Shown here: one piece after another, positions 46,636 to 64,000 of the stretch
Numbering within the stretch: the stretch's first letter is position 1
How the letters are laid out: the number at the start of each line of letters is the position of its first letter
From: Candidatus Poribacteria bacterium
GTDB lineage: Bacteria > Poribacteria > WGA-4E > WGA-3G
Assembly: GCA_963665235.2 (NCBI GenBank)
Contig: CAXXLX010000001.1
Location: 2,784,001 to 2,848,000, forward strand
Direction: 5' to 3'
DNA: 64,000 bases
Position numbers and translations under genes: made by a program
The notes under the pieces: model-generated
What the model was told of the DNA's origin: nothing
What the model saw: only the letters and a program-made list of their open reading frames with translations
The model's database searches: none

Positions 46636-49600
46636 CTATTGCCCAAGTGAAATTAGGTAATCCCGAACCAATTGTATCTGTCTTTCAGCGTCATTATCAG
46701 CATAACCTTCAACAGCCATGTGTTTTCCATCTATGAGCGGCCATGCCTGTGGCATCGCAGTACCACGTTGGAACGACTGCGGGTCTTTCATCCAATCAAT
46801 TAACCAATCCACCTTAAGCCGGTCCTTCGCCAAAGAGAGGTCTGGCCTGCCCGCTTTATCACTACCATCTGGAATGACTTCACCTTTTGCAGGGTGACAC
46901 GAGATACACTGTAGTTTGTCAAAAATTTGTTTACCCACTATCAAATCTGCTCGCGTTGGGGTTGGCGATTCAAGCGTTTCGTAAGGGAACGGTTCATCAT
47001 CCAGAGCAGAGAAATATTTAACAAGCGTGGTCGCTTCATCATCCGATAGCCCGAAAGTCGGCATCCGCACCTTCAGTCCATAGCGGATATCGGAGGGATT
47101 CTTAAGGAACGCAAACAGCCACTCCGGATAGACTCGTGCCCCTTCAGCTTGCAAAGGCGGCGGCGAGAACTGCTTCGCAGTCGTCTGATCGAGTCCTTCA
47201 TGGGCTATAATGACATCCCGATAATCGCCACCTTCACCTTCAATCTCGTGGCATCCGGTACAGTTATATTTTTTTACCAAACGTCTACCCGCATCAATCT
47301 GGTTCTGTTTCTCCACCTGCATCGGTTGCGCTGCATGCTTATAGATATAGTTGAGCGGATACTTCTCCGGTTGGAAACTCTTTAGGAGCACAGCCAGAGC
47401 TCTTGCCTCCGCGTCGTTAACCTGAAAAACAGGCATGCGCGACATAATCCGCCGGGTTTGATACCGGCGCGGGTTAGTAATCTTCCCAATTGTCCAACCG
47501 TGCCAACTGTGCTCAACATCCGCCGCCACCGTGTCCCCGAAATCAAACTCTTCGGTCATTTTTGCCCCAAATTCTCCGAGGTCCGCCCCGACTTTGGATT
47601 CATTCTCAAAACCCGGAATTTCGTGACATCCGAAACACCCGTAAGTCCTGACGAGCTTCTCACCCTCTGCTACGTCCACCTCTCCGACTGACTCCGTAAC
47701 AACGTTAAGTGTTTCCTTTTGCAGGCTCATCAGATACGCAACGACGTTGTCAACCTCACGCGTGCTCAACCGCAAGCTCGGCATAGCTGTATCAGGGTCA
47801 TAAGCTTTCGGGTCGATAATCCATTGGCGCAGATAGTTCGGTGTAACCTTTGTACCGACGCTGTCAAGTGCCGGCCCGAAATCACTGCCCAGGTCACCCA
47901 CGGTGTGGCACGTTAGACAGCCCACCGTTTTCACTGTCTCTTCACCCGCTCTAATTGCCCTTTCAGATGTAGAATATGTTCCTGAGGCTTCGTCCAACGT
48001 TGTATCTGTCCGCTCAGCAAGATAGGCAGCGATAGATTTGACCTCATCAACGACCCGCGCCACAGCATCCTCCGCGTACGGATACGTCGTCCCATCGTCC
48101 GCTCTAACGACATAGCCGGTCTCAGTTTTCGTAACTGCACCGGTCCGCTGTCCACCATTTTTGAGATAAACAATTTGGCTCATGCCATCAGCAGGGAAGA
48201 AATTCGGCATTGTCGTCTCAGGCAGATACGCCTCCGGTTTCTTAATCCAACTCTCAAGCCATGCCGTATCTTTTACCTTACTTCCAACTTTTTCGAGTGA
48301 TGGACCAACTTTACCAATCGTGTCAATCGCGCTGTAACCCTCAACCGCGTGACATCCATGGCAACCGAGGTCTTCAAACAGAGCGAGGCCCTCGGTAAGA
48401 TTCGGAGCGTAGTCCTCCGGGGCATTTGTGTCAGGGTTCACACCGTAATCTAACTTCATCACACCATCGTGGCAGCGGCGACAATTAGACTCCATGTACC
48501 CCTTCGTCTCTTCAGATGCACTGCCGGTGTGTTCATCTAATCCTAAAACAGGCGTGAGCCAATATTCTGCGTGCGTTAAAGCATGCGCAGCTTTCTCTGT
48601 CAATGCCTGTCCTTGCCCACCATGGCACGGAGTACATCCGAATCTATCAACCGGGTGTTTTGCAAGGAGCACATCCCGATGCGAATGCGTTCGAAGCACT
48701 GAGGCGTAGTCAGTTTCATAAGCAATTTCAACTACCCCGAAAACATCCGGATCTGTGAACGTGAGCGTACCATCCCCCGCCAATGTGTATTCTTCCGTCT
48801 CCGCCTCAAAATCGTCAATTAAAATTGACTCGCTGCCCACTTTAACCCTCGGATGCTTGAGTTGAACGACAACAAGGTTGTCACCATCACCCTCTATCTC
48901 AAACGTCTCCTGCGCAGCATGGTCGTACCCACTTTTGTCTATCGCGAAATGGCATGTCGTACACCTATCCGCCGTATAGGCGAAATCTTCAAGATAGTAT
49001 TGAACAATACTACGGGTTTTCCGAAATGGGTTTTCTAACAGACTCCCGAGGAAATTCCGCTTGATACCGCCCACATCATGCAGCTTTTCTTGCAGCCGCG
49101 TGACTGCCTCATGACGCGCTTTGTTTGCCTGAACCGTTGCCAATTCCGCTTGTGCCGCGCTAATACCACTCTGGATATCTGCATCGGCGGGTTTATATTT
49201 CTGGGCAACTAGATAAATACTCAGTGCTTCCTCTGGGTTACCGTTTTCTTGATGGAACGCTGCTAACGCCTTATTTGCCTCTGCAAAGGTAGCTTGTGCT
49301 TCTATAATAGCAGCTGTCAGCTCACCTTCAATCTGGGATTCCAGAGCATCCAATTCCTTCTTCCATTTTTTGACTTTTGCATCCTGCTCACCCGAGCCCT
49401 GTTCCTTGGCTTCATGGAGACTATGCTGGTATTTATAGTTAATCGCATCTGATTCGCTCTGCCGGAACTTCCGTTCTTGGAGGGCCTCATCAAGCGTAAC
49501 TTGCTTGTTTCTTACCTCCTTCTCTAATTCCCGAAGTTCTTTGGTATCAACCTCTCGCGCCTCCGGGATATCGGGCAGGTCTTGCATGGCAATTTCCAAT

Positions 49601-49782
49601 TCTGCCTTCGTCTTTTCATATTCATATTGATAAAACTGTTGTTGAATCTCTTTCCAAGGTCGACGCGTAATCATTTCGCTCCAAAACCCCCATACGGTTA
49701 CCAACCCCAGCAATCCGGAGAGAATAAAGAACAGCGCGGAATACGATTTACTTTCAGCGGGAATTTCTTTTTTGCTCCTCAC
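46636..49782 (-). CDS. Membrane-anchored octaheme cytochrome c of the Rieske/cytochrome b complex
   Basis: CTTCH, CTPCH, CRRCH, CHGCH, CLTCH, CFGCH, CTGCH, CISCH; N-terminal TM and coiled coil. Confidence 0.9.
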   Translation of the reverse strand: MRSKKEIPAESKSYSALFFILSGLLGLVTVWGFWSEMITRRPWKEIQQQFYQYEYEKTKAELEIAMQDLPDIPEAREVDTKELRELEKEVRNKQVTLDEALQERKFRQSESDAINYKYQHSLHEAKEQGSGEQDAKVKKWKKELDALESQIEGELTAAIIEAQATFAEANKALAAFHQENGNPEEALSIYLVAQKYKPADADIQSGISAAQAELATVQANKARHEAVTRLQEKLHDVGGIKRNFLGSLLENPFRKTRSIVQYYLEDFAYTADRCTTCHFAIDKSGYDHAAQETFEIEGDGDNLVVVQLKHPRVKVGSESILIDDFEAETEEYTLAGDGTLTFTDPDVFGVVEIAYETDYASVLRTHSHRDVLLAKHPVDRFGCTPCHGGQGQALTEKAAHALTHAEYWLTPVLGLDEHTGSASEETKGYMESNCRRCHDGVMKLDYGVNPDTNAPEDYAPNLTEGLALFEDLGCHGCHAVEGYSAIDTIGKVGPSLEKVGSKVKDTAWLESWIKKPEAYLPETTMPNFFPADGMSQIVYLKNGGQRTGAVTKTETGYVVRADDGTTYPYAEDAVARVVDEVKSIAAYLAERTDTTLDEASGTYSTSERAIRAGEETVKTVGCLTCHTVGDLGSDFGPALDSVGTKVTPNYLRQWIIDPKAYDPDTAMPSLRLSTREVDNVVAYLMSLQKETLNVVTESVGEVDVAEGEKLVRTYGCFGCHEIPGFENESKVGADLGEFGAKMTEEFDFGDTVAADVEHSWHGWTIGKITNPRRYQTRRIMSRMPVFQVNDAEARALAVLLKSFQPEKYPLNYIYKHAAQPMQVEKQNQIDAGRRLVKKYNCTGCHEIEGEGGDYRDVIIAHEGLDQTTAKQFSPPPLQAEGARVYPEWLFAFLKNPSDIRYGLKVRMPTFGLSDDEATTLVKYFSALDDEPFPYETLESPTPTRADLIVGKQIFDKLQCISCHPAKGEVIPDGSDKAGRPDLSLAKDRLKVDWLIDWMKDPQSFQRGTAMPQAWPLIDGKHMAVEGYADNDAERQIQLVRDYLISLGQ

Positions 49783-49823
49783 GAAACCTTAACCTCCAAG
49801 TCAAAAAATAGACATTACTACTG

Positions 49824-50690
49824 TTAAATGTTGAACCACGGTGATACCCAAATATATTTCACATTAAAGCCTAAGCGGAGAATCATTTTGATAGGTAGGG
49901 CAAGCATCGTCAAAAACAGAAAAGAGACGATGACATATCGGATAAGTCCAAGTTCCTGTAAAAAACGGCTACTTTGCCTGCGCCATACATAGAGAACCGG
50001 CCCAAGAGCATAATACGCGGCTACCACGAAAAATCCGAAAAAGTTCGCCGTCGACGCATCTCTAATTCCAAACAGATAAGACAGGTCCACATTCGTTAGC
50101 GGCACAACAAGGTGCGGATCCCATTTCTGCCACGGCCAAAACAGATTCCACCCAGGGCCCCTAAGAAACGTGCCAACCACCATCAACACAATCCACAGAA
50201 TCAGAAAACCGAAACAGAACACAGCCAGTGCAAACGGACGCTCTTTTATCGTGTAATACCCCTTGCCTTTTTGGTTAATGTCTATATACGGAATAGCAAT
50301 AAGACCAGCGATAATCAACCCAGGAAGCACTACACCAGCAATCCACGGATCGAAATAAACCAGCATCTCCTGCAACGCAAGAAAATACCATGGAGCTTTC
50401 GATGGATTCGGTGTCTTCGCCGGATTGCTCGGCTCTTCAAGCGGGGCATCAATCATTATTGACCAAACCCCAAGCACCAGCATCACGATAATCGCACAGA
50501 TAAATTCGTTCCGACACAAATACGGCCAGACATAAACCTTATCGTTCAGCGCAGCATCCGACGGCACCCCTGCAAGGTCCGTCTGACGTGCCTGCCGATA
50601 CGCAAGCCACATAAAATAAGGTATCAAAAAGAGAATAGCGACAATCGGAACATTATCAGGTTTCGATACTAGAGCTAAAAAATTCTCCAT
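49824..50690 (-). CDS. Cytochrome b C-terminal part (subunit IV / PetD-like)
   Basis: APLEEP.NP..TPNPSKAPWYF..LQE, IPYID. Confidence 0.88.
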   Translation of the reverse strand: MENFLALVSKPDNVPIVAILFLIPYFMWLAYRQARQTDLAGVPSDAALNDKVYVWPYLCRNEFICAIIVMLVLGVWSIMIDAPLEEPSNPAKTPNPSKAPWYFLALQEMLVYFDPWIAGVVLPGLIIAGLIAIPYIDINQKGKGYYTIKERPFALAVFCFGFLILWIVLMVVGTFLRGPGWNLFWPWQKWDPHLVVPLTNVDLSYLFGIRDASTANFFGFFVVAAYYALGPVLYVWRRQSSRFLQELGLIRYVIVSFLFLTMLALPIKMILRLGFNVKYIWVSPWFNI

Positions 50691-50760
50691 ATCTTAATCT
50701 CATCTCCTTCCTAATTCCCTGAAGAGCATAGTTGCACAACGCATTCCAAGACAGGGTGTA

Positions 50761-51531
50761 TTAGAGCGGGCCAGAAATCCCACCATCCTTACGCACACGC
50801 CAAAAATGCAGCGCCATCAGCAGACTCGCCAACAGCGGCACAGCGATACAGTGCAAGATATAGAAGCGTAACAACGTGGACTCTCCGACCATTGTACCCC
50901 CTAACAGCGCAAACCGCACATCGTTTGCCTGCGTAATATCTTGTGGCGCAAACGGGCCCTCATGTCCTAAAACTGGGGTAGCACGTGCCATATTCGTTCC
51001 AACCGTAACCGCCCACAGTGCAAGCTGGTCCCAGGGCAACAGATACCCTGTAAAACTCAGGAAAAATGTCACAAGCAGCAGGATAACACCGACCGCCCAA
51101 TTAAACTCCCGCGGTTTTTTGTAGGAACCTGTCAAAAAAACCCGGAACATGTGAAGCATCACCGAAATAACCATACCGTGCGCTGCCCACCGGTGCATAT
51201 TCCGCAACAGCATCCCAAATGGAATGTCAAACTCAAGATATTGCACATCATGGAAAGCATACTCCGCCGTCGGACGGTAATAGAACATCAGCAGCACACC
51301 CGTCACAGCTGTCACCAAAAACATCAGGAAGGTAATGCCCCCCATACACCAAGTGAACCGGAAGTTCAGCGCATGCCGAGAAACCCGAGGCGGATGCAGA
51401 TGCAACCACACATTCTGTAGAATTTGTAAGGTATACCGGCGCCCTGTATCTTCGTAACCGTGCCGAAAAATAGAACGCCAAATATCGGAATTGGTAATCT
51501 TCTCTTTAAGCCCTTTACGTTCTTCGTTCAT
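50761..51531 (-). CDS. qcrB: Cytochrome b6-like N-terminal part
   Basis: WCMGGIT, TGVLLMFYY.P, MHRWAAH..V..LHM, FTGYLLPWDQ, RFYILH. Confidence 0.93.
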   Translation of the reverse strand: MNEERKGLKEKITNSDIWRSIFRHGYEDTGRRYTLQILQNVWLHLHPPRVSRHALNFRFTWCMGGITFLMFLVTAVTGVLLMFYYRPTAEYAFHDVQYLEFDIPFGMLLRNMHRWAAHGMVISVMLHMFRVFLTGSYKKPREFNWAVGVILLLVTFFLSFTGYLLPWDQLALWAVTVGTNMARATPVLGHEGPFAPQDITQANDVRFALLGGTMVGESTLLRFYILHCIAVPLLASLLMALHFWRVRKDGGISGPL

Positions 51532-51544
51532 TTATATCCCTTCT

Positions 51545-52033
51545 TTAAACTTTCAGAGATGCACCAGGGTCGCCCCATTGCCCTTTTTCACCCAAAAATT
51601 TCACCGATTTATCAATTTCAAGCTGACCATCTTCTGCCAAAGCAATCTTCACCCGCTCAAGAGGCCGAGGGGCCGGCCCCTCATAGTTGATACCGTCACG
51701 GTCAAAACCGCTACCGTGGCATGGACACTTGAACTTATTTTCCGAACCGAGCCAACGCGGGGTGCAACCCAAATGCGTACAGGTTGCTAACAGCGCGTAA
51801 AACTCACCATCTTCACGCCGAACAATCCAAACGCCAAACGGCTCCTTCTTATATTTTTCGCTAACGCTCCCCGGCGGATATTCCCCAGGAAAGCCCGCTT
51901 TAAAGATAGACGACGGTTCAAACAGCACACGCGGGTAGAGGTATCGCACCAGCCCAGGACCGAAACACAATCCCAATGCTGCCGTGAAGTTCCCCCAACC
52001 GAGAAATTTGAAAAATTTACGTCGAGATAACAC
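51545..52033 (-). CDS. qcrA: Rieske iron-sulfur subunit
   Basis: Tat motif SRRKFF, CTHLGC, CPCHGS. Confidence 0.95.
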   Translation of the reverse strand: MLSRRKFFKFLGWGNFTAALGLCFGPGLVRYLYPRVLFEPSSIFKAGFPGEYPPGSVSEKYKKEPFGVWIVRREDGEFYALLATCTHLGCTPRWLGSENKFKCPCHGSGFDRDGINYEGPAPRPLERVKIALAEDGQLEIDKSVKFLGEKGQWGDPGASLKV

Positions 52034-52904: not shown

Positions 52905-55403
52905 TTAACGGATAATCTTCACATTAATAGCCGGACTATCCTGTTGAAACTGTTGACCGTTGATTATCGCTGAAGCGCGGAACCTAACCTGATACGTTTT
53001 CGGCTCCAGAGAACTCAGTGCCTCCAATGGAAACTTCACATCCATCCCATTAACAGGAATCGTAACAGGAGAAACAGTAATACCCTCCGGTATACCTATA
53101 GGCGTAATGGTAACAACATCCGTGAACCCACCCCGCCGTACCACACTCACCGTAAGCGTAGCCGACTTCGTAATCGGTTCACTTTTTGGCGGAGATTCAA
53201 CCTCTTCCTCAGCAGCTGCAGCCGGTGCCGGATTTGCAATAGCGACCGTCTCACCTTCACCTGTTAGCGTAGCATCATCTTTCGCTGCCGAGGCAGCTTC
53301 CTCCTCAGTTTCTGTTTTAGGGAAAACAATACTAAACCGCAAAGGCTCCACCGTTACAATGAAAGGCGCAGCGACAACATTTAGCGGAATAGCAGGAGCC
53401 GCCTCCGTCACATTTTCGCGGTCGACATTTGCTGTACCGGTAACCGAAATATAGGCAGTACCCGGCGTAGGCACAACAGAGAATTGTTCCCGCCGTTCAA
53501 CAGTACCCGCCCGCAGTGAAATCACCGCACTATTTTGCCCCGCTGGAATTGTCGCCTTTCCTCCCGAAATACGGGGCGGAACTCCTTGTGTCGAAAGCGC
53601 AATAGGACCATTAAAACCGGCGCGTCGATTCGCAATAACGTGGAAGCTCATAGATTTATTGTGAACAACCCTTAAATCAACATCAGCAAATGAGAGCGTA
53701 AAGGCAGGTGCCTCCATCACAGTCAACAGAATCCCCTTCGGTGACCCAGTCGATTCTATACGTTGACCCCCAATAGCTCCAACCCCAACGATAGAGAACG
53801 GGTGCAGCCCAAGCGGCGCGTCCGAAGGTGCAGTTATCGTCAACACTGCTTGATTTTGACCGGGGTATAAAATTGTCGGACTGACTATAAATCCTTTCGG
53901 AAGGTCCGGGGAATAGAAGCGAAGCGCACCATTAAACCCATCCAAACGTGCTACAGAAACCGTCGTCATCAGAGTCCCACCTCGACTAATACGCGGGTTA
54001 TCGGCACCCACATTCACCCGAAAACCCGGGTTAAGTGGACGAATCGTCAGTCGATATGGATAATCTCCGCCACCGGCACCGTTTAGGTCACGCACCGAAA
54101 TAGCGTAATCGCCTGCCTCCGGAAATGCAAAACTGAGCCGGGCATCCGTTCCACTAGCATCATCGTTGATACTTAATATCTGTTCTTCAACGCTGCCCTC
54201 GGCTTCCCCTTTTTTATGAGAATAGAGCGTAAGCAACGGATCGAGTTTAGATTGAAAACCGCGCGCCGCAACATCAAAGACAAAACGCGTCCCTTTCTCT
54301 ACCTTGAAAGAAAACCTATCGATATCGCCAGCCTTCTCTATCTTTCCGTTGACAGTTATCGGCGTTCCGATTTTGTTCTCTTTCGTTAGCGCGTTATTCG
54401 GCTCATTCTCAGCTGTTTCGTTAAATTCACCGATAGCGAACGGATGCGGATTAGTCTCAAGGCCACCGGGCGTACTCACCCGTAGCTCCTGACTGCCTAA
54501 TGGCGTTTCAGCACCAATGTCAAGTTGTATTGCATTGACCGAGCCCAAGTTTGCACCTGTCACATTCACGGTCGTAGCGGTACCCCGCTTTGCACCGAGT
54601 GGAAAAATGCTCTGAAGATACGGCAACTCACCGATACTTAACCGATATAGATAATTCCCGCCACCTTGATAGCGAATGTCCCGCAGCTGAAGCGTATACT
54701 CACCCGCTTGTGCCGTTGTGTAGTTAATAAATGAATCTAACCCGTTCCCGAGGCCACTTTCCACAACCTCTGCACCGTTCGGGTCAAGGAGAACGAAGTA
54801 CGAATCCAAAGCGGACCCAATACGTTGCGCGCTTATGTCACAGATAAGCTGTGCCCCTTTTCTTAATTTAAAACGGAACAGATCAGCATCTTCAATGGAG
54901 GAAACCACACCGCTTACGGTAACAGGCAACTCAAGCATTTGTGCCTCATCCATTGTAGAATTCGGCTCCTGTTCCGCTATCTCAGGCAGATTACCGACAA
55001 TGAAATTTTGCGGATTGGAAACACCATTCGGCGTGATGAGCCGCACCTGATGCGTACCGAGCGGTGCATCCGCCGCAATTTGGAACGATACAACCAGACG
55101 CGGGTTGTTCGGAATGTTACCGGAGATGCCTGAACCGTTAAAACGGACAGTCGCCACCGGCGACTTTTTCGTAATTTCCGCGTTAATCCCCGTTTTATTG
55201 AACCAGACCTCTGCTGTCTCACTGATGTTTTTACCATCCAGTATAATTTCAATAGTTTGTCCGCGTTGTGCACCACGCGGCGATATACCTGTCAACTGCG
55301 GTGCAACCTGTGCATGAACTAAACCGACAACCAAAAACAGAATCAAGGTTATCTGACTCAAAAACCATCTTTGTCTTTTATGTTCTAATAATATATCAGG
55401 CAT
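52905..55403 (-). CDS. Planctomycete-type pre-peptidase C-terminal (PPC) domain protein
   Basis: Signal peptide, PRGAQRG, EQEPN/ENEPN, D.D.F.F, DSYF/DPLL repeats; DUF1501 cluster context. Confidence 0.82.
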   Translation of the reverse strand: MPDILLEHKRQRWFLSQITLILFLVVGLVHAQVAPQLTGISPRGAQRGQTIEIILDGKNISETAEVWFNKTGINAEITKKSPVATVRFNGSGISGNIPNNPRLVVSFQIAADAPLGTHQVRLITPNGVSNPQNFIVGNLPEIAEQEPNSTMDEAQMLELPVTVSGVVSSIEDADLFRFKLRKGAQLICDISAQRIGSALDSYFVLLDPNGAEVVESGLGNGLDSFINYTTAQAGEYTLQLRDIRYQGGGNYLYRLSIGELPYLQSIFPLGAKRGTATTVNVTGANLGSVNAIQLDIGAETPLGSQELRVSTPGGLETNPHPFAIGEFNETAENEPNNALTKENKIGTPITVNGKIEKAGDIDRFSFKVEKGTRFVFDVAARGFQSKLDPLLTLYSHKKGEAEGSVEEQILSINDDASGTDARLSFAFPEAGDYAISVRDLNGAGGGDYPYRLTIRPLNPGFRVNVGADNPRISRGGTLMTTVSVARLDGFNGALRFYSPDLPKGFIVSPTILYPGQNQAVLTITAPSDAPLGLHPFSIVGVGAIGGQRIESTGSPKGILLTVMEAPAFTLSFADVDLRVVHNKSMSFHVIANRRAGFNGPIALSTQGVPPRISGGKATIPAGQNSAVISLRAGTVERREQFSVVPTPGTAYISVTGTANVDRENVTEAAPAIPLNVVAAPFIVTVEPLRFSIVFPKTETEEEAASAAKDDATLTGEGETVAIANPAPAAAAEEEVESPPKSEPITKSATLTVSVVRRGGFTDVVTITPIGIPEGITVSPVTIPVNGMDVKFPLEALSSLEPKTYQVRFRASAIINGQQFQQDSPAINVKIIR

Positions 55404-55803: not shown

Positions 55804-57249
55804 CTAGAATATCCCGGTAATCACTTCACCTTTAACCAACTCACGAGGCTGGTCTAAGTGATTCATCACGATAGTGTGCGGGTCAATACCAAGCGTATGA
55901 TAGACCGTCGCCAGAATATCCCGCGGATGCACCGGTTTTTCAAGCGGGGTTGAACCCGTCGCATCAGATTTACCGTAAACCTGACCACCCTTCACACCAG
56001 CACCAGCGATTAGACCGGTATAGCAATACGGCCAGTGGTCCCGACCATCCGGAGCGTTCCCGTTGCCTGACGTGCTGATACCCATACGAGGCGAACGTCC
56101 GAATTCACCGATAGCAAGCACAAGCGTATCCTCTAACATACCGCGCTGAGCTAAATCCTCCAGCAGCGAAGATACCGCACTATCCAACTTCGGACAGTGT
56201 AGATTTTTCAACGGACCGAAATTCGCAGCGTGCGTATCCCATGCCGTCGTATTCGGATTACCGTTCGCAACTGAGGGCCAGTTCACCTGAACAAAACGCG
56301 TACCAGCCTCAACCAATCGGCGAGCGAGCAGCACACTCTGTCCAAATGTGTGCCGACCGTAGCGGTCACGCATCTCATCCGGCTCCTGTGACAAATCAAA
56401 CGCGTTTCGTGCCTTCTGCGACAGGATAAGGTCATACGCCTTCTCATAATGCTCATTCAGCGCATAAGAATCCGCCACCTTGTCAATTTCTGGCATACTT
56501 GCATTAATCGTTTCAAGGAGCGTCTTCCGCCGCTGCAACCGCACCGGGGGCACCTCTGGACGGAGCGTCAAATCGTCAAGTTTCACCTCTTTATTCGGGT
56601 CTTGGAAGAGGAAATACGGGTCATACGCTCTACCGAGGAAACCAGCGTTTCCACCTTTACCGATGATATTACTCTCCTGCATCGGGCGTGGAAGTTGCAC
56701 AGCAGCCAACATCGCTTCGGCTGGCGGCTTGAGCTTCGCAATATGCGCCGCCGCATTCGGATGATCGGCTGGAGACGGCGGATCCAGTTGGCCCGAAGGC
56801 GCAACCTTGTCCGGCGTTTCACCGGTAACCATCTGATACATCGCCGCAGTGTGATTGAAAAGTCCCGCTGGCGTATAACTTACGGAACGGATAAGACACG
56901 CCTTATCCATCTGTTTCGCCAAAAGCGGCATCGTTTCTGATAACTGAATACCCGGAACATTCGTCGGAATCGGGTTAAATTCTCCACGGATATTAGAGGG
57001 TGCATCCGGCTTCGGATCCCAGATGTCAATATGGCTCGGGCCGCCTTGTAAGAAAAGCAGAATAACTGAATTCGCTTTGCCCCAACCACTTACAGCCGGT
57101 GCCACATCAACTGCCGTACTCGCCTTCGCTTGAAGTGACAAGACTTGGGGTAGGCTAATGCCCAGCATCGCCGCGCCCCCCACGCGGAGAAATTCTCGAC
57201 GCGAGAACCCGTCACATAATCTTCCAGGGGCTTGTGGTAATGATAACAT
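55804..57249 (-). CDS. DUF1501 family protein
   Basis: SRREFL (Tat-like), GGPSHIDIWDPKP, LARRLVEAG, WDTH, GEFGRSP, GRDHW. Confidence 0.93.
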   Translation of the reverse strand: MLSLPQAPGRLCDGFSRREFLRVGGAAMLGISLPQVLSLQAKASTAVDVAPAVSGWGKANSVILLFLQGGPSHIDIWDPKPDAPSNIRGEFNPIPTNVPGIQLSETMPLLAKQMDKACLIRSVSYTPAGLFNHTAAMYQMVTGETPDKVAPSGQLDPPSPADHPNAAAHIAKLKPPAEAMLAAVQLPRPMQESNIIGKGGNAGFLGRAYDPYFLFQDPNKEVKLDDLTLRPEVPPVRLQRRKTLLETINASMPEIDKVADSYALNEHYEKAYDLILSQKARNAFDLSQEPDEMRDRYGRHTFGQSVLLARRLVEAGTRFVQVNWPSVANGNPNTTAWDTHAANFGPLKNLHCPKLDSAVSSLLEDLAQRGMLEDTLVLAIGEFGRSPRMGISTSGNGNAPDGRDHWPYCYTGLIAGAGVKGGQVYGKSDATGSTPLEKPVHPRDILATVYHTLGIDPHTIVMNHLDQPRELVKGEVITGIF

Positions 57250-57422: not shown

Positions 57423-59921
57423 CTAACGATTGAATAAAAACGCTGGACTATTAATCAACGCCCACAGCAAATCTTGTGCGCCTTCCTCTTTAGATTCTGC
57501 TGCAGCGATATGCTCTGCCGCCTTTGCAGCTTCAGCTTCCGATGGCAACCGAGCAAGCGTCGCAAGATATAATTCTTCAACGATGGCACCAGCATCCGCA
57601 TCCACTTTTGTAAGTTTTGCAATTCGTCCCGCAGGGTCTATGAGCGCATCCGCGACTGTCGGCCCGTTAAGCAGGTTCATTGCATGTGCAAGACTCACCT
57701 CACCGGTCCGCTCACATTCACAAGAAGACTCACGTTCTGGCCTCCCGAAAAGTTTCAAGAAACCGTCATCTTTTACCTGACTATCGGGCAACTGAACCGC
57801 GCGGAAGTTTTTCGGCACCGCTTGGAATTTCGGGCGGCTCCCCGTCGCTATGCCGATGGCATCTAGCAACTGCTCCGCTGTCAAACGCCGCGCAGTCCCG
57901 TGCGAGAAGTTAATTTCATCGTCTTGATTCCACTTATTCGTCTTAATACTCTGCTGATAAGTTCTGGAACGGGCAATCGTTTTCATGATATGTTTCATAT
58001 TAAACCCGTTCTCAACAAAATCCTTCGTCAGCGCATCAAGCAGTTCCGGATTGCTCGGCGGATTGCTCGTTCGAATATCGTCTACTGGCTCGATGATACC
58101 GCGCCCCATGAAATAACTCCAGAGACGGTTCACACCCGCCCGCGCGAACATCGGATTCTCCGGGGCAGTAAGCCACGTAGCAAACGCTTGCCGCCGGTCG
58201 TTTGTACCTGAATCCACCTCGCCGAACGGAACGGAAGGTTCAACTACCGCTAATGTCCGTGGATGTTTCACAGGACTGTCCGTATAACTTGCATAAACGA
58301 TTTCATCCCCAGGCAATTGCCCACGTTTTACCTTAACATCCGCGAAAAACGCCCCCAATTCATAATATTGATTCTGAGTCCATTTTTCAAACGGATGGTC
58401 ATGACACTTATTGCAGGAGAAGCGAACACCGAGAAAAAGCTGTGTCGTATTTTCTACAACCGCCGTATATTCGCGCGACACCCGAAAATAACTCGCCGCC
58501 GGATTCGTGTACGCACTTCCCGAAGCTGTCAACAGTTCCCTGACAAACCGGTCATAAGGCCGGTTCTCCTTAATCGCATCGTGAATCCACTCCTGGAACA
58601 GCCAAACCCCGCGCTCACCGAGAAACTTACGATTAGACTGAAGCAGGTCCGCCCACTTATGCGTCCAATGGTCAACAAACTCCGGTGTTTCTATCAACAC
58701 ATCAATTAACTTTTCCCGTTTCGCCTTCGAGTCGGTGTCATCCTTCAGGAAACTGCGCACCTGCTCAGGTGTCGGCGGAAGCCCGGTCAAGTCTAGATAA
58801 ATGCGACGCACAAATTCTTCATCGGTACACAACGCTGACGGTAGAATTTTCAACCGCTGAAGCTTATTGTGAACGTGCGTATCAATATAGTTATATTCAG
58901 GGGTTTCAACCCATTCGTAACCGCTCCGGTCCCCCATAACGATAATGCCGTTTGTGCTATATGTCCCTTCGTAACGGGTGAGAATAGCCGTTTCGCCACG
59001 ACGTGCAGCAGTGACCACCCCCGCATCCGTTACAGTTGCAACATCGTTAACACTACTTGTGAACTTCGCCTCACGGGTAACATCCCGCGTCGTGCCATCC
59101 GCATAGTGTGCGATGACGACCAGCTGTTGCATCATCCCGGGCATCGCCAATTCAGCGGAGTCCGGTAGCACCTCTATCCGTTTCACACGGTCGATGCGGC
59201 CAACGTCAGAAATCGCGCCTTCCGCTATCCATTGCCGAAGGAGCTTATAATAGCGGGCCCCTGGCACTATCACCTGCCCGCCTTTGTGCGGCACCTCTGA
59301 TGTCGGTTTGAGCAACATCAGGCTCTGCTCAGGGAACGCCCTATTGAAACGTCGTCCAGAAATGTCCTCGATTAACAGCTCATAATCGAACTCTGGGTCA
59401 TAACCGCGTAAGGAAAGCTTGAAACCATTTTTGCCCTTCGCTCCACCGTGACATGTGCCGTTATTACACCCCGCATGACTCAGGGTAGGCATCACATCCC
59501 GAACAAAACTTACAGGCGGCGCGTCTATACTTTCGACCGTTACCGGGAGCTCAGCACTAAGCCCTTTCGCTTTAACAACAACTTTTGTTGAACCGACCGC
59601 TATCGGAACAATATACCCCGATTCGTTAATTTCTACACTATTAGATGCGGACGTTAGCGTTGCGCGATGCGTTACATCGACCCATGCTCCATCCGCTGTT
59701 TGTCCAGAAACGAGGATACGGCGTTCATCGCGCGCATGCGACAACGTCAACGCCTCTGGATGAACCTTCAACGCTTTTAGGGCAATGCTTTCAAGCCCAT
59801 CTTGCGCCGCTGATACCTCTACACTCGCCGCGGGATTCTCCATCTCACTTGAAACCTCAAGCAGAAAACACATGGAAAATACGATAAGGAGCGTAGCAAA
59901 CAAATGAACACTGCGTTCCAT
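57423..59921 (-). CDS. DUF1549/DUF1553 (PSD1-type) protein with Ig-like (Big_2) domains
   Basis: GCNNGTCHG, FVRRIYLDLTG, CNKCHDHP, NRLW..FMGRG, FGRP.R...CECER, WALINS..F.FNR. Start ATG 59921 after GGAGG. Confidence 0.92.
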   Translation of the reverse strand: MERSVHLFATLLIVFSMCFLLEVSSEMENPAASVEVSAAQDGLESIALKALKVHPEALTLSHARDERRILVSGQTADGAWVDVTHRATLTSASNSVEINESGYIVPIAVGSTKVVVKAKGLSAELPVTVESIDAPPVSFVRDVMPTLSHAGCNNGTCHGGAKGKNGFKLSLRGYDPEFDYELLIEDISGRRFNRAFPEQSLMLLKPTSEVPHKGGQVIVPGARYYKLLRQWIAEGAISDVGRIDRVKRIEVLPDSAELAMPGMMQQLVVIAHYADGTTRDVTREAKFTSSVNDVATVTDAGVVTAARRGETAILTRYEGTYSTNGIIVMGDRSGYEWVETPEYNYIDTHVHNKLQRLKILPSALCTDEEFVRRIYLDLTGLPPTPEQVRSFLKDDTDSKAKREKLIDVLIETPEFVDHWTHKWADLLQSNRKFLGERGVWLFQEWIHDAIKENRPYDRFVRELLTASGSAYTNPAASYFRVSREYTAVVENTTQLFLGVRFSCNKCHDHPFEKWTQNQYYELGAFFADVKVKRGQLPGDEIVYASYTDSPVKHPRTLAVVEPSVPFGEVDSGTNDRRQAFATWLTAPENPMFARAGVNRLWSYFMGRGIIEPVDDIRTSNPPSNPELLDALTKDFVENGFNMKHIMKTIARSRTYQQSIKTNKWNQDDEINFSHGTARRLTAEQLLDAIGIATGSRPKFQAVPKNFRAVQLPDSQVKDDGFLKLFGRPERESSCECERTGEVSLAHAMNLLNGPTVADALIDPAGRIAKLTKVDADAGAIVEELYLATLARLPSEAEAAKAAEHIAAAESKEEGAQDLLWALINSPAFLFNR

Positions 59922-59992
59922 ATTAACCTCCGGATGTGATATGAAACTTACTTTTTTAAAGGAGCGATGAAAACCGCCCTGATATTTTGGGT

Positions 59993-60817
59993 TTACCACC
60001 GATTTTTCAGATGTCCCCACACCACCGGCAACTTGCCGCCGGGGGATACATCTGCATATTCCGATTCATTCGCCAACCAATTGATAACATTTTCTGTGAG
60101 TTGTTCTAATTGGTCAATGTCTTTGTTATTCTTATGATAGTTCGGCAGCCGCCAATTCATATTGAACACCTTACCGCTACCAGCTTTCCAATAACCGAAC
60201 GCGGCAATTTGGTCTTTCCAATCGTTTGCAGGCGGCCCCCAAGCGTTCGCAAGCGTCCTAAAATTCTTCCAAAGCTTGTTATAATAATCGCCACTCTTTG
60301 GGAATCCTGTGGAATTGACCTGAATCCTATCGCCGACTGTCGGTGCCTTGCCCTCAATATTCTTCAATCCCTCAACTAGACCAAGGTCTAGTGTCTCTTG
60401 CAGTACCGTGATACCGACGTTTTGGCCGTCGTCTAAAACGGCATTGTATTGGCGAGCGACAGCGTTTTCCAATCCCATCGGTGTAGCATAACGGATTGCC
60501 CATGCTGTCAGAAGCACTGCACCCCCACTTTCCGCGTAGTCCAGGAACGCATCAATTTCCGCATCCGACAAAGCCCCGGGGTCGCTATCCCCTTCATGCC
60601 ACCACACAACGCCATACTGCTTAAACGTCGCACTCTTCAGATCATTTTTGCCCAATACCGTCGTTTCAAACGTCTCTTTTGCGAAATCCAGTGCAGGGGT
60701 TGTAAACGGACCATCCTCCCCGAGATAGAGAAAACCCACATTCAACTTTGCTGCATTTCCTATATTTAAACCACATATCAACATTAAAGTCAAGAAAAAT
60801 AGAACTTTTCGATACAT
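59993..60817 (-). CDS. Secreted protein with a GATase-like fold and a Poribacteria-type C-terminal motif
   Basis: Signal peptide; C-terminus ADVSPGGKLPVVWGHLK. Confidence 0.7.
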   Translation of the reverse strand: MYRKVLFFLTLMLICGLNIGNAAKLNVGFLYLGEDGPFTTPALDFAKETFETTVLGKNDLKSATFKQYGVVWWHEGDSDPGALSDAEIDAFLDYAESGGAVLLTAWAIRYATPMGLENAVARQYNAVLDDGQNVGITVLQETLDLGLVEGLKNIEGKAPTVGDRIQVNSTGFPKSGDYYNKLWKNFRTLANAWGPPANDWKDQIAAFGYWKAGSGKVFNMNWRLPNYHKNNKDIDQLEQLTENVINWLANESEYADVSPGGKLPVVWGHLKNRW

Positions 60818-60858
60818 TTTTGCTCATCCTCTGAATTTTTTGGCAATTTTTGTGAGTT

Positions 60859-61632
60859 TCACGACGTATGTTCGCGAAGCCGCCCCTCACCTAATTTCAC
60901 AAACTCCGGCTCCATCTCAAACGCAATGAAATCTCGCCGATGCCGCTTACACACTATTGGGCAGGTACCCACCCCAGCAAACGGATCCAAAACCAAATCG
61001 CCCGGCAACGAACTCGCTAACACCAACCTCTCAATTAACCTCTCAGGTTTCTGAATCGTGTTAAGGGCCTCTCTACACACCAACTCTTGTGACCTATACG
61101 TCAGTTGTTTTATATCGCCCCAAACATCACCAGGATTCTTACCTTTCGGGTTATACTTTGTTTTTCCGAACTTACCGTTTTTGACAGATGGAACGTTTTC
61201 ACAACGTTGTCTCTGTTCCAACTCAACAAGTTGTCCTACTCTTATAGCGTCAAGGTTATAGCACCTTGGACGCTTGCCCTTAATAAAATAGCAGATAACA
61301 TCGTAGTTATTCGTATAATTGATTCTGCCTTGGGCAAGGCGACTCGGTTGATACCACACAATCTTTGAACGGAGGGTTAAGAACTCCCGATAGTCTATAA
61401 AGTCGATGCAGTCCGGTTTCCCGAACAGATAGAGCGCACCGCCCTCCTTCAATTTTGGTGTAAAACTTCTAATAAGCCCGAAATTAAATTCCTGAATTGA
61501 GGAAATCTTATCCCACGCCGCCGTTGTTACGCCATACGGACCATCACACACAATCAGATCGATTGAGGCATCTTCCACCGATTTCAGTAGCGTAAATGCG
61601 TCTCCGCAATGGATAGTGTTACGTTCAAGCAT
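60859..61632 (-). CDS. Orphan N6A/N4C DNA methyltransferase (beta class)
   Basis: DLIVCDGPY (motif IV variant), QKPERL, LDPFAGVGT (motif I). Confidence 0.88.
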   Translation of the reverse strand: MLERNTIHCGDAFTLLKSVEDASIDLIVCDGPYGVTTAAWDKISSIQEFNFGLIRSFTPKLKEGGALYLFGKPDCIDFIDYREFLTLRSKIVWYQPSRLAQGRINYTNNYDVICYFIKGKRPRCYNLDAIRVGQLVELEQRQRCENVPSVKNGKFGKTKYNPKGKNPGDVWGDIKQLTYRSQELVCREALNTIQKPERLIERLVLASSLPGDLVLDPFAGVGTCPIVCKRHRRDFIAFEMEPEFVKLGEGRLREHTS

Positions 61633-61681
61633 GATTCTGTTTTACAATGGGACCAACCCATAAATCACTTAGCTTGGTGAT

Positions 61682-61711
61682 ATTATACAACAATTTTTCG
61701 TAACAGGTCAA
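61682..61711 (-). promoter_or_regulatory. Sigma70-like promoter of the methyltransferase
   Basis: TTGACC-18 nt-TATAAT on the minus strand. Confidence 0.6.
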
Positions 61712-61733
61712 CAATTTATGGTAAAACTCTACT

Positions 61734-63188
61734 TTACATCGGACCAACCCGCTCCGGTCCCATATCCATCGCAAACATAGACGCATCAAAGCTTCTTTTC
61801 AGCAGCTCCAATTTGAGACCCTGCATCTCTTGTGTATGCCAAAGGTTATCAAACTCATCGGGGTCATTCACTAAATCGTAGAGCTCACCCTCTTCGTGAC
61901 CGTGATAAACAACCAATTTGTGATGCTTATCGCGATACATTGTGCCGAAAGTATGGTCTCGTAAATTAACGGCATCATAGTACTCACATCGCACGAAATC
62001 ACGATGATGATTCGCATCCGCTTCACCCCGCAGAATAGGAAGTAATGAACGTCCATGCATCTGCTCAGGAACAGCCAGCCCGGCTAATTCTAAAAGTGTC
62101 GGTGTTTTGTCAACTAGCTCAACAAGTGCATCGCTTTTCAAACCGCCTACAAATTGCCCCGGCCACGAGAAAATCAGCGGCACTCTCACCAATCCCTCGT
62201 AAAACCGGCACCCCTTTTGGATAAGACCGTGGTCGCCAAGTGTTTCGCCATGGTCACTTGTAAAAATAACAACCGTGTTTTCACGTTGCCCGGTCTCCTC
62301 AAGCGTTTCCAGAATCCTGCCCAACTGCTCGTCAATCAGTTGAACCATTGCATAATATGCCGCTTTGAGTGTCTTTGCATCTCTTTCCCCAACAATTTCG
62401 GAGGCAGGTTTACCGCGTGGTGGCTGCGGTAAAATCGGACTCCGGATGTCTAATTCATTGGGATGCTGTCCTTTCGACTGAAAGTCAACCTGGCGTAACC
62501 GATGCTGCTGTTCCAGGTCGCTTTCTCTGAAGAGCGGTTCCGGCATATCCTTCGGCTCGAATCTTTCCCGATGTGTCTGTGGCGGGTTGAACGGTGGATG
62601 CGGGTCATAGATATTGACACTTGCAAGCCACGGGCCATCCCGTTCCTCACGAATAAACGCAATTGTTTTTTCAGCACACCAGGTCGTTTGATGTAGCTCC
62701 GCTGGCACCCCTTCCGGATTCCGATTGAGTTCACCGAGGATATACCCTTTTGAGCGGACCCAATCCGCGTAGTCGTGCCCCACCTTCCAATCATCGCGCG
62801 GCGCATGACTATACTGCCAATAGCGGTAACCGTCAGCTGCGCGCGGTTCAACTCGGCGATAAGCACTTGCGAGGTGAAGTTTACCAATTAACCCGCAATC
62901 GTACCCGACATCTGCCAGCATTCGTGTCACAAGCGGATACGTTTCCGGAAAGAAATCGTTTCCGTTCCGCATCGCGTGTGTCGCGCTGGGGTACATCCCC
63001 GTCAGAAAGCTGGCTCGACTCGGTGTGCAAATAGGACTTTGGCAATAGGCATGCGTAAATGCCACACCCTCCGCAACCAAACTATCAATATTCGGTGTTG
63101 ACACGTACGGATTCCCTAGCGCGCCTATCGTATCATAACGCTGCTGGTCGGTACAGACCCAGAGGATATTCGGAGCTTCAACAGCCAT
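61734..63188 (-). CDS. Formylglycine-dependent sulfatase
   Basis: PNIL...DQQR, CTPSRASFLTG, GKLH, SDHG, GELYDL..DP.E. Confidence 0.95.
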   Translation of the reverse strand: MAVEAPNILWVCTDQQRYDTIGALGNPYVSTPNIDSLVAEGVAFTHAYCQSPICTPSRASFLTGMYPSATHAMRNGNDFFPETYPLVTRMLADVGYDCGLIGKLHLASAYRRVEPRAADGYRYWQYSHAPRDDWKVGHDYADWVRSKGYILGELNRNPEGVPAELHQTTWCAEKTIAFIREERDGPWLASVNIYDPHPPFNPPQTHRERFEPKDMPEPLFRESDLEQQHRLRQVDFQSKGQHPNELDIRSPILPQPPRGKPASEIVGERDAKTLKAAYYAMVQLIDEQLGRILETLEETGQRENTVVIFTSDHGETLGDHGLIQKGCRFYEGLVRVPLIFSWPGQFVGGLKSDALVELVDKTPTLLELAGLAVPEQMHGRSLLPILRGEADANHHRDFVRCEYYDAVNLRDHTFGTMYRDKHHKLVVYHGHEEGELYDLVNDPDEFDNLWHTQEMQGLKLELLKRSFDASMFAMDMGPERVGPM

Positions 63189-63194
63189 CGGTCC

Positions 63195-64000
63195 TTACTC
63201 TTCAATTGCTGCACTAAATCCTGCTGCTTTAATAACGTTTGCTAGTTCATCCGTACTCACAGCATTTTTTCGTACCTTAATCACCGCCAGAGCCGGGAGA
63301 GAAACCGCCGCGCTGATAACGTTTTGGTGTTGTGAAAGTGCATCCTGCACTTTAGTTACACAGCCACCTCACGTCATACCTGTCACTGTGAAAGTGACCT
63401 CCACACTTGCAGTTGCCTCAATAGGTACCGACATAAACGCGTTCAACAGCTTTCCGGATTCGGTATCGAACACCCGAATTTTTCCATCAAATCCGCCTGC
63501 GGCAAGTTGTTTACCGTTCGGGTGAAAGGCAACAGCAAAAACGCCTACTGTATCGCCTTGCATCGTTGCCAACCGTTTCCCATCTGCCACGTTATAGATG
63601 CGAACTTCACCGGCAGAACTTCCCACTGCAAACCGACTGCCATCCGCTGAAAACGTCACAACCTCAATCGAACCGGACTGTGCTTCGTAAGCACGGATAA
63701 GATTAAAATCTGTGTTGCCAACGTCTCTGCGCGTTTGACGGAAAATTCTGTAGAGCCGCGGAATCCGATCTTCTCCTGCACTCAAAACCTGGTCCGCAGT
63801 CGGATGCCGAGCAATCGTGTTCAACCCCCCATATCCTTTATTACTGGAGTTTACATCGTCCACAAAAGACCCGGTTTCGACCTCAACCAATTTCAGTGCT
63901 GAATCGCGACCACAACTTACAAAATGCGTCCCATCCAAGGAGAAAAGCGTCCCGAAAACCCAATCGCTGTGATTATCAAACTTAACCAATTCCTTCTCAT
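63195..64000 (-). CDS. WD40-repeat protein (5' part outside the window) with a C-terminal HMA domain containing in-frame UGA (putative selenocysteine, GMT-U-GGC)
   Basis: WD40 repeats, then VTFTVTGMT-TGA(63371..63369)-GGCVTKVQDAL...IKAAGF..*; 57 further open codons to TAA 63197..63195. Confidence 0.85.
63326..63368 (-). promoter_or_regulatory. Bacterial SECIS-like stem-loop immediately 3' of the UGA
   Basis: UGA-GGUG GC UGUG UAACU AAAGUGCA[GGA]UGCACUUU CACA A CACC: 8-bp upper stem, G-first loop 23 nt after the UGA. Confidence 0.75.

Follow-up and report, generated by a model that had tools for sequence, protein, structure and literature searches.

The window analysed here, a stretch of 64,000 nt from the genome of a Candidatus Poribacteria bacterium (G000:C1:2784001-2848000), ends within a minus-strand gene in which an in-frame TGA takes the place of the first Cys of a heavy-metal-associated (HMA) motif. 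The last 268 codons of this gene, stop included, lie at 63195..64000, where the frame and Pfam matches identify a PSCyt1-WD40-HMA protein; the complete gene (G000:C1:2847195-2848820) has 541 codons and its 5' part lies beyond the window end. The minus-strand text at the site is ...GGT ATG ACG TGA GGT GGC TGT..., and with translation table 11 the frame stops at the TGA, which is codon 484 (63369..63371). It is the single in-frame TGA of the gene. When it is translated as a sense codon, 57 further codons remain open up to a TAA (63195..63197), the true stop of the read-through frame, and 6 nt separate this TAA from the ATG of a sulfatase gene at 63188. A sequence-only reading of this DNA had described both the stop on the first Cys of the HMA motif and the 57-codon continuation, and both were confirmed on the minus strand. 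Based on the sequence and its orthologs, we read the TGA as selenocysteine (Sec, U) at residue 484, the first Cys position of a G-M-T-C-x-x-C loop. In all likelihood the gene encodes a real selenoprotein whose last domain was missed by annotation.

The read-through product would consist of a signal peptide, a PSCyt1 haem-c domain, a WD40 propeller and a C-terminal HMA domain, in this order. The planctomycete cytochrome c domain PSCyt1 (PF07635) was detected near the N-terminus with a Pfam E value of 2.7e-9, and residues 160-480 matched many WD40 propeller families of Pfam. The N-terminus, with its basic residues, a hydrophobic stretch and L-Y-A, looks like a signal peptide of the Sec export type. 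Because this signal peptide is combined with a CxxCH site for haem c, whose maturation takes place outside the cytoplasm, we infer that the PSCyt1-WD40-HMA protein is exported.

What, then, is encoded beyond the TGA? The read-through tail matches the Pfam HMA family PF00403 with an E value of 4.3e-10 and 40.3 bits (cut-off 24.8), and the domain, of beta-alpha-beta-beta-alpha-beta order, occupies 63216..63395 on the minus strand. HMA metal sites are defined by the loop G-M-T-C-x-x-C, which with Sec reads G-M-T-U-G-G-C in this protein. An AlphaFold2 model was built from 25 aligned orthologs and has a mean predicted local distance difference test score (pLDDT) of 75.9. The propeller is confident in this model, and residues 472-539 are predicted to form a beta-alpha-beta-beta-alpha-beta, ferredoxin-like fold with a pLDDT of 85-92, with strands at 472-480, 501-507, 511-517 and 536-539 and helices at 485-496 and 523-532. 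G-M-T-U is predicted as the loop 481-484 between strand 1 and helix 1. The nearest solved sequences to the tail are the copper-binding domains of ATP7B and CopA, followed by MerA and CopZ.

The databases hold this protein almost entirely in its shortened form. In a collection of 5.8 billion proteins, residues 440-541 gave 53 matches, 51 of which are 439-490 aa long and end at the TGA, covering only the 43% of the query that precedes it; the seven of these that carry a name are all called "WD40 repeat protein". The other two are copper ATPases, and none of the 53 matches combines WD40 and HMA in one protein. A whole-protein search of 1.84 billion representatives found the HMA tail in none of 12 fetched hits, in a list that was dominated by giant WD40 proteins and has no bearing on the fusion elsewhere. 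Very probably, gene callers cut the selenoprotein gene short at its TGA.

The occurrence of the gene was followed at two scales. A scan of 41 genomes found an ortholog, at 71-79% identity, in all 24 genomes of the same family in addition to G000; each of these family orthologs has exactly one TGA, and the match reaches residue 537-540. A phylum scan of 176 Poribacteria genomes, with a match at E <= 1e-100 taken as an ortholog, found the gene in 133. In 112 of them the match passes one TGA and reaches residue 536 or beyond, in nine the gene is full length without a stop, and in 12 the match ends at residue 468-477. Of these 112 genomes, two are G064 and G027 and the other 110 belong to the window's family, which has 112 members with G000 included. 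Those of the nine stop-less orthologs that were sequenced carry Cys at the TGA position, and most of them are without the hairpin. Four of the early-ending matches were examined further: tblastn showed that in G036 and G030 a U-HMA domain follows a diverged linker, and G039 and G033 are without the tail. A second, partial copy of the gene was seen at G010:C53:7073-7648 (within L037), about 450 nt after the full copy; it covers residues 347-538 at 71% identity and has one TGA.

At the codon level we compared the loci that remained of 110 fetched ones when 14 duplicates, in which the same genome was present twice, had been removed. The codon at the position G-M-T-[ ]-x-x-C is TGA in 67 of the 71 distinct HMA-bearing loci and a Cys codon in the remaining four (two TGC and two TGT). 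The other 25 distinct loci have no HMA tail. Three of these are from Poribacteria and 22 from other groups (Verrucomicrobiota, Chthonomonadales/Armatimonadota, Haliangiales and Limnocylindria metagenome-assembled genomes, MAGs); the latter end after the propeller, and homologs in Verrucomicrobiota and Armatimonadota MAGs share 44-51% identity. A complete HMA fold is kept downstream of the TGA in all 67 loci, down to 52% whole-protein identity. The exchange of TGA for TGC or TGT at one codon is the Sec/Cys pairing that defines selenoprotein genes. The Sec codon proposed from a single sequence thus recurs in related genomes, in the predicted alternation with TGY and with its downstream frame intact.

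These comparisons bear on two other explanations of the TGA. If it were a true stop, the downstream frame would be either a remnant in decay or a small gene of its own with the GTG at 63350 as its start. It is true that gene callers end the protein there, as 51 of the 53 database matches do, and that a 51-codon ORF (open reading frame) with a GTG start is present at 63195..63350. Nevertheless, a true stop is very improbable, as the TGA falls inside the motif for metal binding, 67 distinct loci encode a complete HMA fold downstream of it, the Cys homologs are continuous, and the GTG ORF is without strand 1 and both metal ligands. The second explanation, an error of sequencing or assembly or else a nonsense mutation that arose recently in this one genome, has a negligible probability. 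The TGA is passed in 112 genomes and occupies the same codon in all 67 distinct TGA loci. Its letters are also unchanged in contigs of three DNA-type runs and one RNA-library run from three studies, and these runs include a strain that has 55 other differences over the stretch and keeps the TGA. Assembly error and a lone nonsense mutation are refuted by the phylum-wide TGA and the contigs. The RNA-library contig (63345-63568) covers the TGA; as DNA carry-over is possible and the run shares few words with the stretch, it was not counted as expression.

Directly 3' of the TGA lies an element that resembles a bacterial selenocysteine insertion sequence (SECIS). The element occupies 63326..63368 on the minus strand and is made of two lower stems and an apical hairpin, with a folding energy of -15.4 kcal/mol. 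The apical hairpin (63335..63353, minus strand), AAAGUGCA-GGA-UGCACUUU, has an 8-bp stem and a GGA loop; it begins 15 nt after the UGA and its loop 23 nt after the UGA. The minimum free energy (MFE) fold contains the lower stems UGUG/CACA and GGUG/CACC as well, so the structure described by the sequence-only reading was reproduced by folding. A 71-nt stretch folds at -24 kcal/mol with z = -3.3 and was equalled by none of 200 shuffles. The 43-nt element (63368..63326) was equalled by two of 200 shuffles, and the 19-nt hairpin alone, at -7.3 kcal/mol, by one of 200. According to the available text of a review, the bacterial SECIS (bSECIS) model requires an apical loop of 3-9 nt, an upper stem of 4-16 bp, at least one G in the first two loop positions, a distance of 16-37 nt from the UGA to the loop and an MFE <= -7.5 kcal/mol (PMC13188914). 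The element agrees with each of these constraints, having a loop of 3 nt, a stem of 8 bp, G at loop positions 1 and 2, a spacing of 23 nt and, for the 43-nt element, -15.4 kcal/mol. The 13-mer GTGCAGGNTGCAC occurs four times in the 5.3-Mb genome against an expectation of 0.52, and for three of the four copies an in-frame TGA, placed on the first Cys of an HMA motif, precedes the 13-mer by exactly 21 nt.

The hairpin is conserved to a degree that the surrounding codons do not show. Its core, A-GUGCA-GGN-UGCAC-U, is invariant in 66 of the 67 TGA orthologs, with A, G or C as the third loop base, and the persistence of both frame and hairpin that the sequence-only reading had staked its case on is borne out. 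Orthologs conserve only the apical 6 bp, and the lower stems vary (RNAalifold, 67 sequences). The exception, L105, has GUGC-AGGUC-GCAC and keeps G at loop position 2. This locus (L105:6001-7770, from a Poribacteria MAG) encodes two tandem Sec-HMA domains, each with its own TGA and its own hairpin of that form, and a third TGA is its true stop. For the 67 TGA sequences, synonymous change was scored in 120 columns of codons surrounding the site, with neighbouring codons as the control. The mean normalised codon entropy was 0.09 in the seven hairpin codons (+6 to +12) and 0.72 in the 113 others. Four of the seven hairpin columns had zero entropy as compared with none of the 113, and the hairpin was the lowest-entropy of 114 sliding windows. 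This suppression of synonymous change supports the view that the hairpin RNA is under selection. In the Cys forms the hairpin positions are altered, and two of the three distinct Cys sequences that were folded had no hairpin.

The genome has the machinery that a Sec codon would need, and here too the check asked for by the sequence-only reading turned out positive. All four genes were found above their curated cut-offs: selA with 601 bits (cut-off 268), selB with 357 bits (cut-off 242), the tRNA-Sec gene selC directly after selB with 78 bits (cut-off 47) and the anticodon tca (UCA) by ARAGORN, and selD with 359 bits (cut-off 125; G000:C1:3841015-3841941, plus strand, L011). The selD gene has an in-frame TGA at C1:3841045, and 11 nt beyond it there is a 6-bp hairpin whose loop is GGG. 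SelD is thus itself a predicted selenoprotein here, and its TGA represents a second Sec codon of the same organism with the same loop type. The machinery is also present in Cys-form genomes: selA exceeded its cut-off in four of the five tested and tRNA-Sec was found in all five, the fifth genome being fragmented, with a piece of selA at a contig end beside tRNA-Sec. Loss of the Sec trait was considered as the cause of the Cys forms and is ruled out by this retention.

Where did the tail come from? The genome has four HMA domains: the tail, those of two lipoprotein-like genes and that of one P-type ATPase. The two small HMA genes, of 125 and 142 codons, are in tandem on the plus strand (G000:C1:2948914-2949198 and 2949266-2949691; L135:1333-1710 and 1772-2200), and we read the signal peptides of both as lipoprotein-like. 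In both, GMT-U-G-x-C is present and the TGA is followed at a distance of 21 nt by the same GUGCAGGAUGCAC hairpin core. The tail shares 48% identity with a lipoprotein paralog and 31% with the HMA domain of the ATPase. Homologs of the lipoproteins occur in 154 of the 176 phylum genomes (E <= 1e-8), and one TGA was present in 150 of 150 among the matches listed, which are 150 of 315. The lipoprotein paralogs matched no NCBIfam model at its cut-off; no metal-homeostasis genes were found beside them, and their neighbours give no functional hint. The fourth HMA domain, at the N-terminus of the P-type ATPase, is Cys-type (GMHCEGC). It is carried by a 110-codon ORF that overlaps the 487-codon P-type ATPase ORF in another frame (L133:2-1686, minus strand; G000:C1 near 2259523), an arrangement that reflects either a frameshift in a copper ATPase gene or a mistake in assembly. 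Summed contig depth was several-fold higher over window positions 63307-63380, which hold the TGA and the hairpin, in all four sequencing runs; this fits near-identity among strains and paralogs.

In a quick maximum-likelihood tree built from 96 rows of the cytochrome-propeller part, all HMA-bearing forms group in a single Poribacteria clade with a Shimodaira-Hasegawa-like approximate likelihood ratio test (SH-aLRT) value of 99. The clade contains 67 U rows, four C rows and three tail-less rows; the four Cys forms make up one clade with support of 100, and all 22 outgroup rows are tail-less. The base of the Poribacteria clade has no resolution, hence the tree does not tell whether Sec or Cys came first at this codon. 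One origin for Sec together with SECIS is favoured because the hairpin is common to three U lineages and to the paralogs, and that shared hairpin in the three lineages is the one pointer to Cys having been derived from Sec. The HMA tail was very probably added within Poribacteria, and the two exported Sec-HMA lipoproteins of this genome, which carry an identical SECIS core, are its paralogs.

The gene lies in a conserved neighbourhood. A four-gene module of the Planctomycetes-Verrucomicrobia-Chlamydiae (PVC) bacteria has been described, which consists of genes for DUF1501, PPC, PSCyt1/Big_2/PSCyt2/PSD1 and PSCyt1/WD40 proteins; in the accessible part of that paper its function is given as unknown and electron transport is suggested (Kamneva et al. 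2012, PMC3542564). The gene studied here belongs to this module, as a PSCyt1/WD40 gene beside those for DUF1501, PPC and PSCyt2/PSD1 proteins. Directly downstream, all on the minus strand, are the sulfatase (61734..63188, PF00884), an N6/N4 DNA methylase of the same insertion (60859..61632, PF01555) and a 274-aa protein without a Pfam family that is kept beside the module in Poribacteria (59993..60817). These are followed by the module genes for the PSCyt2/PSD1 (DUF1549/DUF1553) protein (57423..60020), the DUF1501 protein (55804..57249, PF07394, E 5.6e-105) and the PPC-domain protein (52905..55403, PF04151). Downstream of the module, at 46636-52033 on the same strand, genes for a Rieske protein, a split cytochrome b and a 1048-aa multi-haem cytochrome c look like those of a bc-type complex. 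The DUF1549/1553, DUF1501 and PPC neighbours named by the sequence-only reading were verified, and the arrangement is conserved across loci. A DUF1553 homolog was found in the fetched downstream flank of 50 of 57 Poribacteria loci, and at least one module gene was nearby in 14 of 22 loci of other phyla. The WD40 and DUF1553 genes are immediate neighbours in other Poribacteria families; in that of the window they are separated (window 59993-63188) by the genes for the sulfatase, in most cases the methylase, and the 274-aa protein. The 13.6-kb locus L069 has the TGA ortholog, and neither the module nor the inserted genes were found in its flanks, unlike other long loci.

The protein here shares its neighbours with the PSCyt1/WD40 protein of the PVC module, and also its domain order as far as the propeller extends, but the proteins covered by the available text of that description have neither an HMA tail nor Sec (PMC3542564). 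The three unrelated genes inserted in the window's Poribacteria family are a further difference.

The tail itself can be compared with several known HMA-type proteins. MerP and CopZ share its fold and the G-M-T-C-x-x-C loop but are Cys-type and stand-alone; MerP, like the protein proposed here, is exported. The tail scored 22.5-24.7 bits against the MerP model TIGR02052 (cut-off 92.55) and 41 bits against the CopZ model (cut-off 95), and it therefore falls outside the MerP family as curated. NF041115, a UxxU metal-binding (seleno)protein, is among the best NCBIfam matches of the tail and is likewise an HMA-type domain with Sec in the metal loop; it differs in having two Sec residues and in being a stand-alone protein of about 74 aa, the tail motif being U-G-G-C. 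The tail gave 31-37 bits against this model (cut-off 95) and is no member of it. Against NF045683, the MerT/CopZ fusion selenoprotein of NCBIfam (cut-off 375), the tail had no match at E <= 0.01, and the lipoprotein paralogs gave 33-34 bits. The sequence-only reading had named U-for-C HMA or MerP-like domains from other bacteria, and the accessible portions of two reviews do list UxxC and UxxU HMA-type selenoproteins (PMC9312934, PMC13188914). NF041115 appears there as a putative mercuric reductase, and a UxxC cation-transporting P-type ATPase (E1-E2 family) is catalogued as a selenoprotein. This ATPase also has Sec for Cys of UxxC in a heavy-metal transport protein, with a motif that we read as lying in its HMA domain; it differs in that the protein here has no ATPase domains and carries its HMA domain at the C-terminus of an exported cytochrome-c/WD40 protein. 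With the UxxC ATPase, the UxxU protein NF041115 and the MerT/CopZ fusion selenoprotein on record, Sec in HMA-type domains was already known.

What is new is a selenoprotein family and architecture, its phylum-wide conservation in sponge symbionts and a metal or redox site on a subunit of the module; the recoding mechanism is the ordinary bacterial one. The sequence-only reading knew of no description of a WD40-HMA(Sec) fusion, and a literature search, with subscription journals and supplements outside its scope, found none either. The text of a 2026 selenoprotein review does not contain the words WD40, propeller, Planctomyc, Poribacteria or sponge. In the accessible part of a 2026 paper, Poribacteria are mentioned as having hydrogenase variants that contain Sec. 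The finding corrects a systematic annotation error, in that the WD40-type forms in databases end at the TGA, and it adds to the selenoprotein catalogue a phylum-wide family and two lipoprotein relatives. It also gives the first concrete lead on the DUF1501/PSCyt/PSD1 module, the role of which has been open since at least 2012 (PMC3542564), namely a metal-binding or redox site in one lineage that can be expressed and assayed. Finally, it suggests that selenium supply matters for Poribacteria, a dominant group of sponge symbionts.

By analogy with the standard bacterial mechanism, SelB carrying Sec-tRNA(Sec) would bind the GGA-loop hairpin 15 nt past UGA-484. Sec would be inserted at UGA-484, after which 57 more codons would be translated, and the U-x-x-C pair of the resulting HMA domain would add a metal-handling site to the PSCyt1/WD40 subunit of the DUF1501, PPC and PSCyt2/PSD1 module. 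Judged by family, the U-x-x-C pair probably binds a soft metal ion, most likely Cu(I) and possibly Hg(II), a claim we make with less assurance than that of the selenoprotein itself. The pair could also be a redox centre within a real selenoprotein, forming a selenylsulfide whose partner in electron exchange would be a substrate or the haem of the same protein. Such a role would suit the haem-c domain in the same protein and the cytochrome bc-type genes nearby, as well as the electron transport proposed for the module in the part of the description available (PMC3542564). We regard a redox centre as possible though rather unlikely. The fold and the G-M-T-C-x-x-C loop are typical of metal-binding HMA domains, and the best matches are metal-binding domains of copper ATPases and models of the CopZ/MerP type; no thioredoxin-like family was matched.

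Several results weigh against a Sec-containing, metal-binding subunit and have to be set beside the evidence above. For the metal role, no copper or mercury genes were found beside this gene or the lipoprotein paralogs, and none of the curated NCBIfam metal-chaperone or HMA-selenoprotein models was reached at its cut-off by the tail. In the available parts of the review tables, moreover, most UxxC entries are thioredoxin-like or other redox proteins, which favours the redox centre and makes the metal role less certain. The cytochrome domain is poor in the AlphaFold2 model, with a pLDDT of about 30. For the RNA element, Rfam has no matching family, the sole match on 63150-63500 being a chance one to mir-17 at E = 1. 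The third distinct Cys form has a weak 5-bp relic of the hairpin in its MFE fold, absent from the centroid. The ortholog sequences come from related MAGs and are not independent trials. SECIS covariation, on which the sequence-only reading had counted as a further check, failed to appear: compensatory change was seen in none of the six consensus pairs among the 67 TGA orthologs (RNAalifold), the stem being invariant, and the structural support is for this reason one of invariance and not of covariation.

The UGA has also been seen as a selected selenium switch, by which the WD40-only ancestral form would be made at low selenium and the HMA form with selenium, in a functional ratio. Homologs outside Poribacteria end a few residues past the last propeller blade, near the position of the TGA, so that the TGA-ended product would resemble a natural full-length protein plus the first HMA strand. 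The lineage with two tandem Sec-HMA domains (L105) also fits a switch. Nevertheless, a truncated product at scarce selenium is common to every selenoprotein gene, and constitutive production of the tail is feasible, as is seen from the single clade of Cys forms, whose genomes have retained selA and tRNA-Sec. A selected switch is on these grounds distinctly doubtful.

In this genome three exported HMA domains have one common SECIS hairpin, and the sole cytoplasmic HMA domain is Cys-type. A broader reading can be put forward tentatively, as a minority possibility. Exported HMA domains of Poribacteria would use Sec as a rule, and one of them would have been fused to the PSCyt1/WD40 subunit of the DUF1501 module. 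The module would handle a soft metal or pass electrons via a selenol beside the haem, and selenium supply would set the ratio of the short to the long form.

Upstream of the gene (L022:3111-5580, minus strand) lies a gene for a 677-aa membrane protein without a Pfam family and with a His-rich tail, which is preceded by a 170-aa ORF with an STT3-like N-terminal match. The two may be one split glycosyltransferase-like gene.

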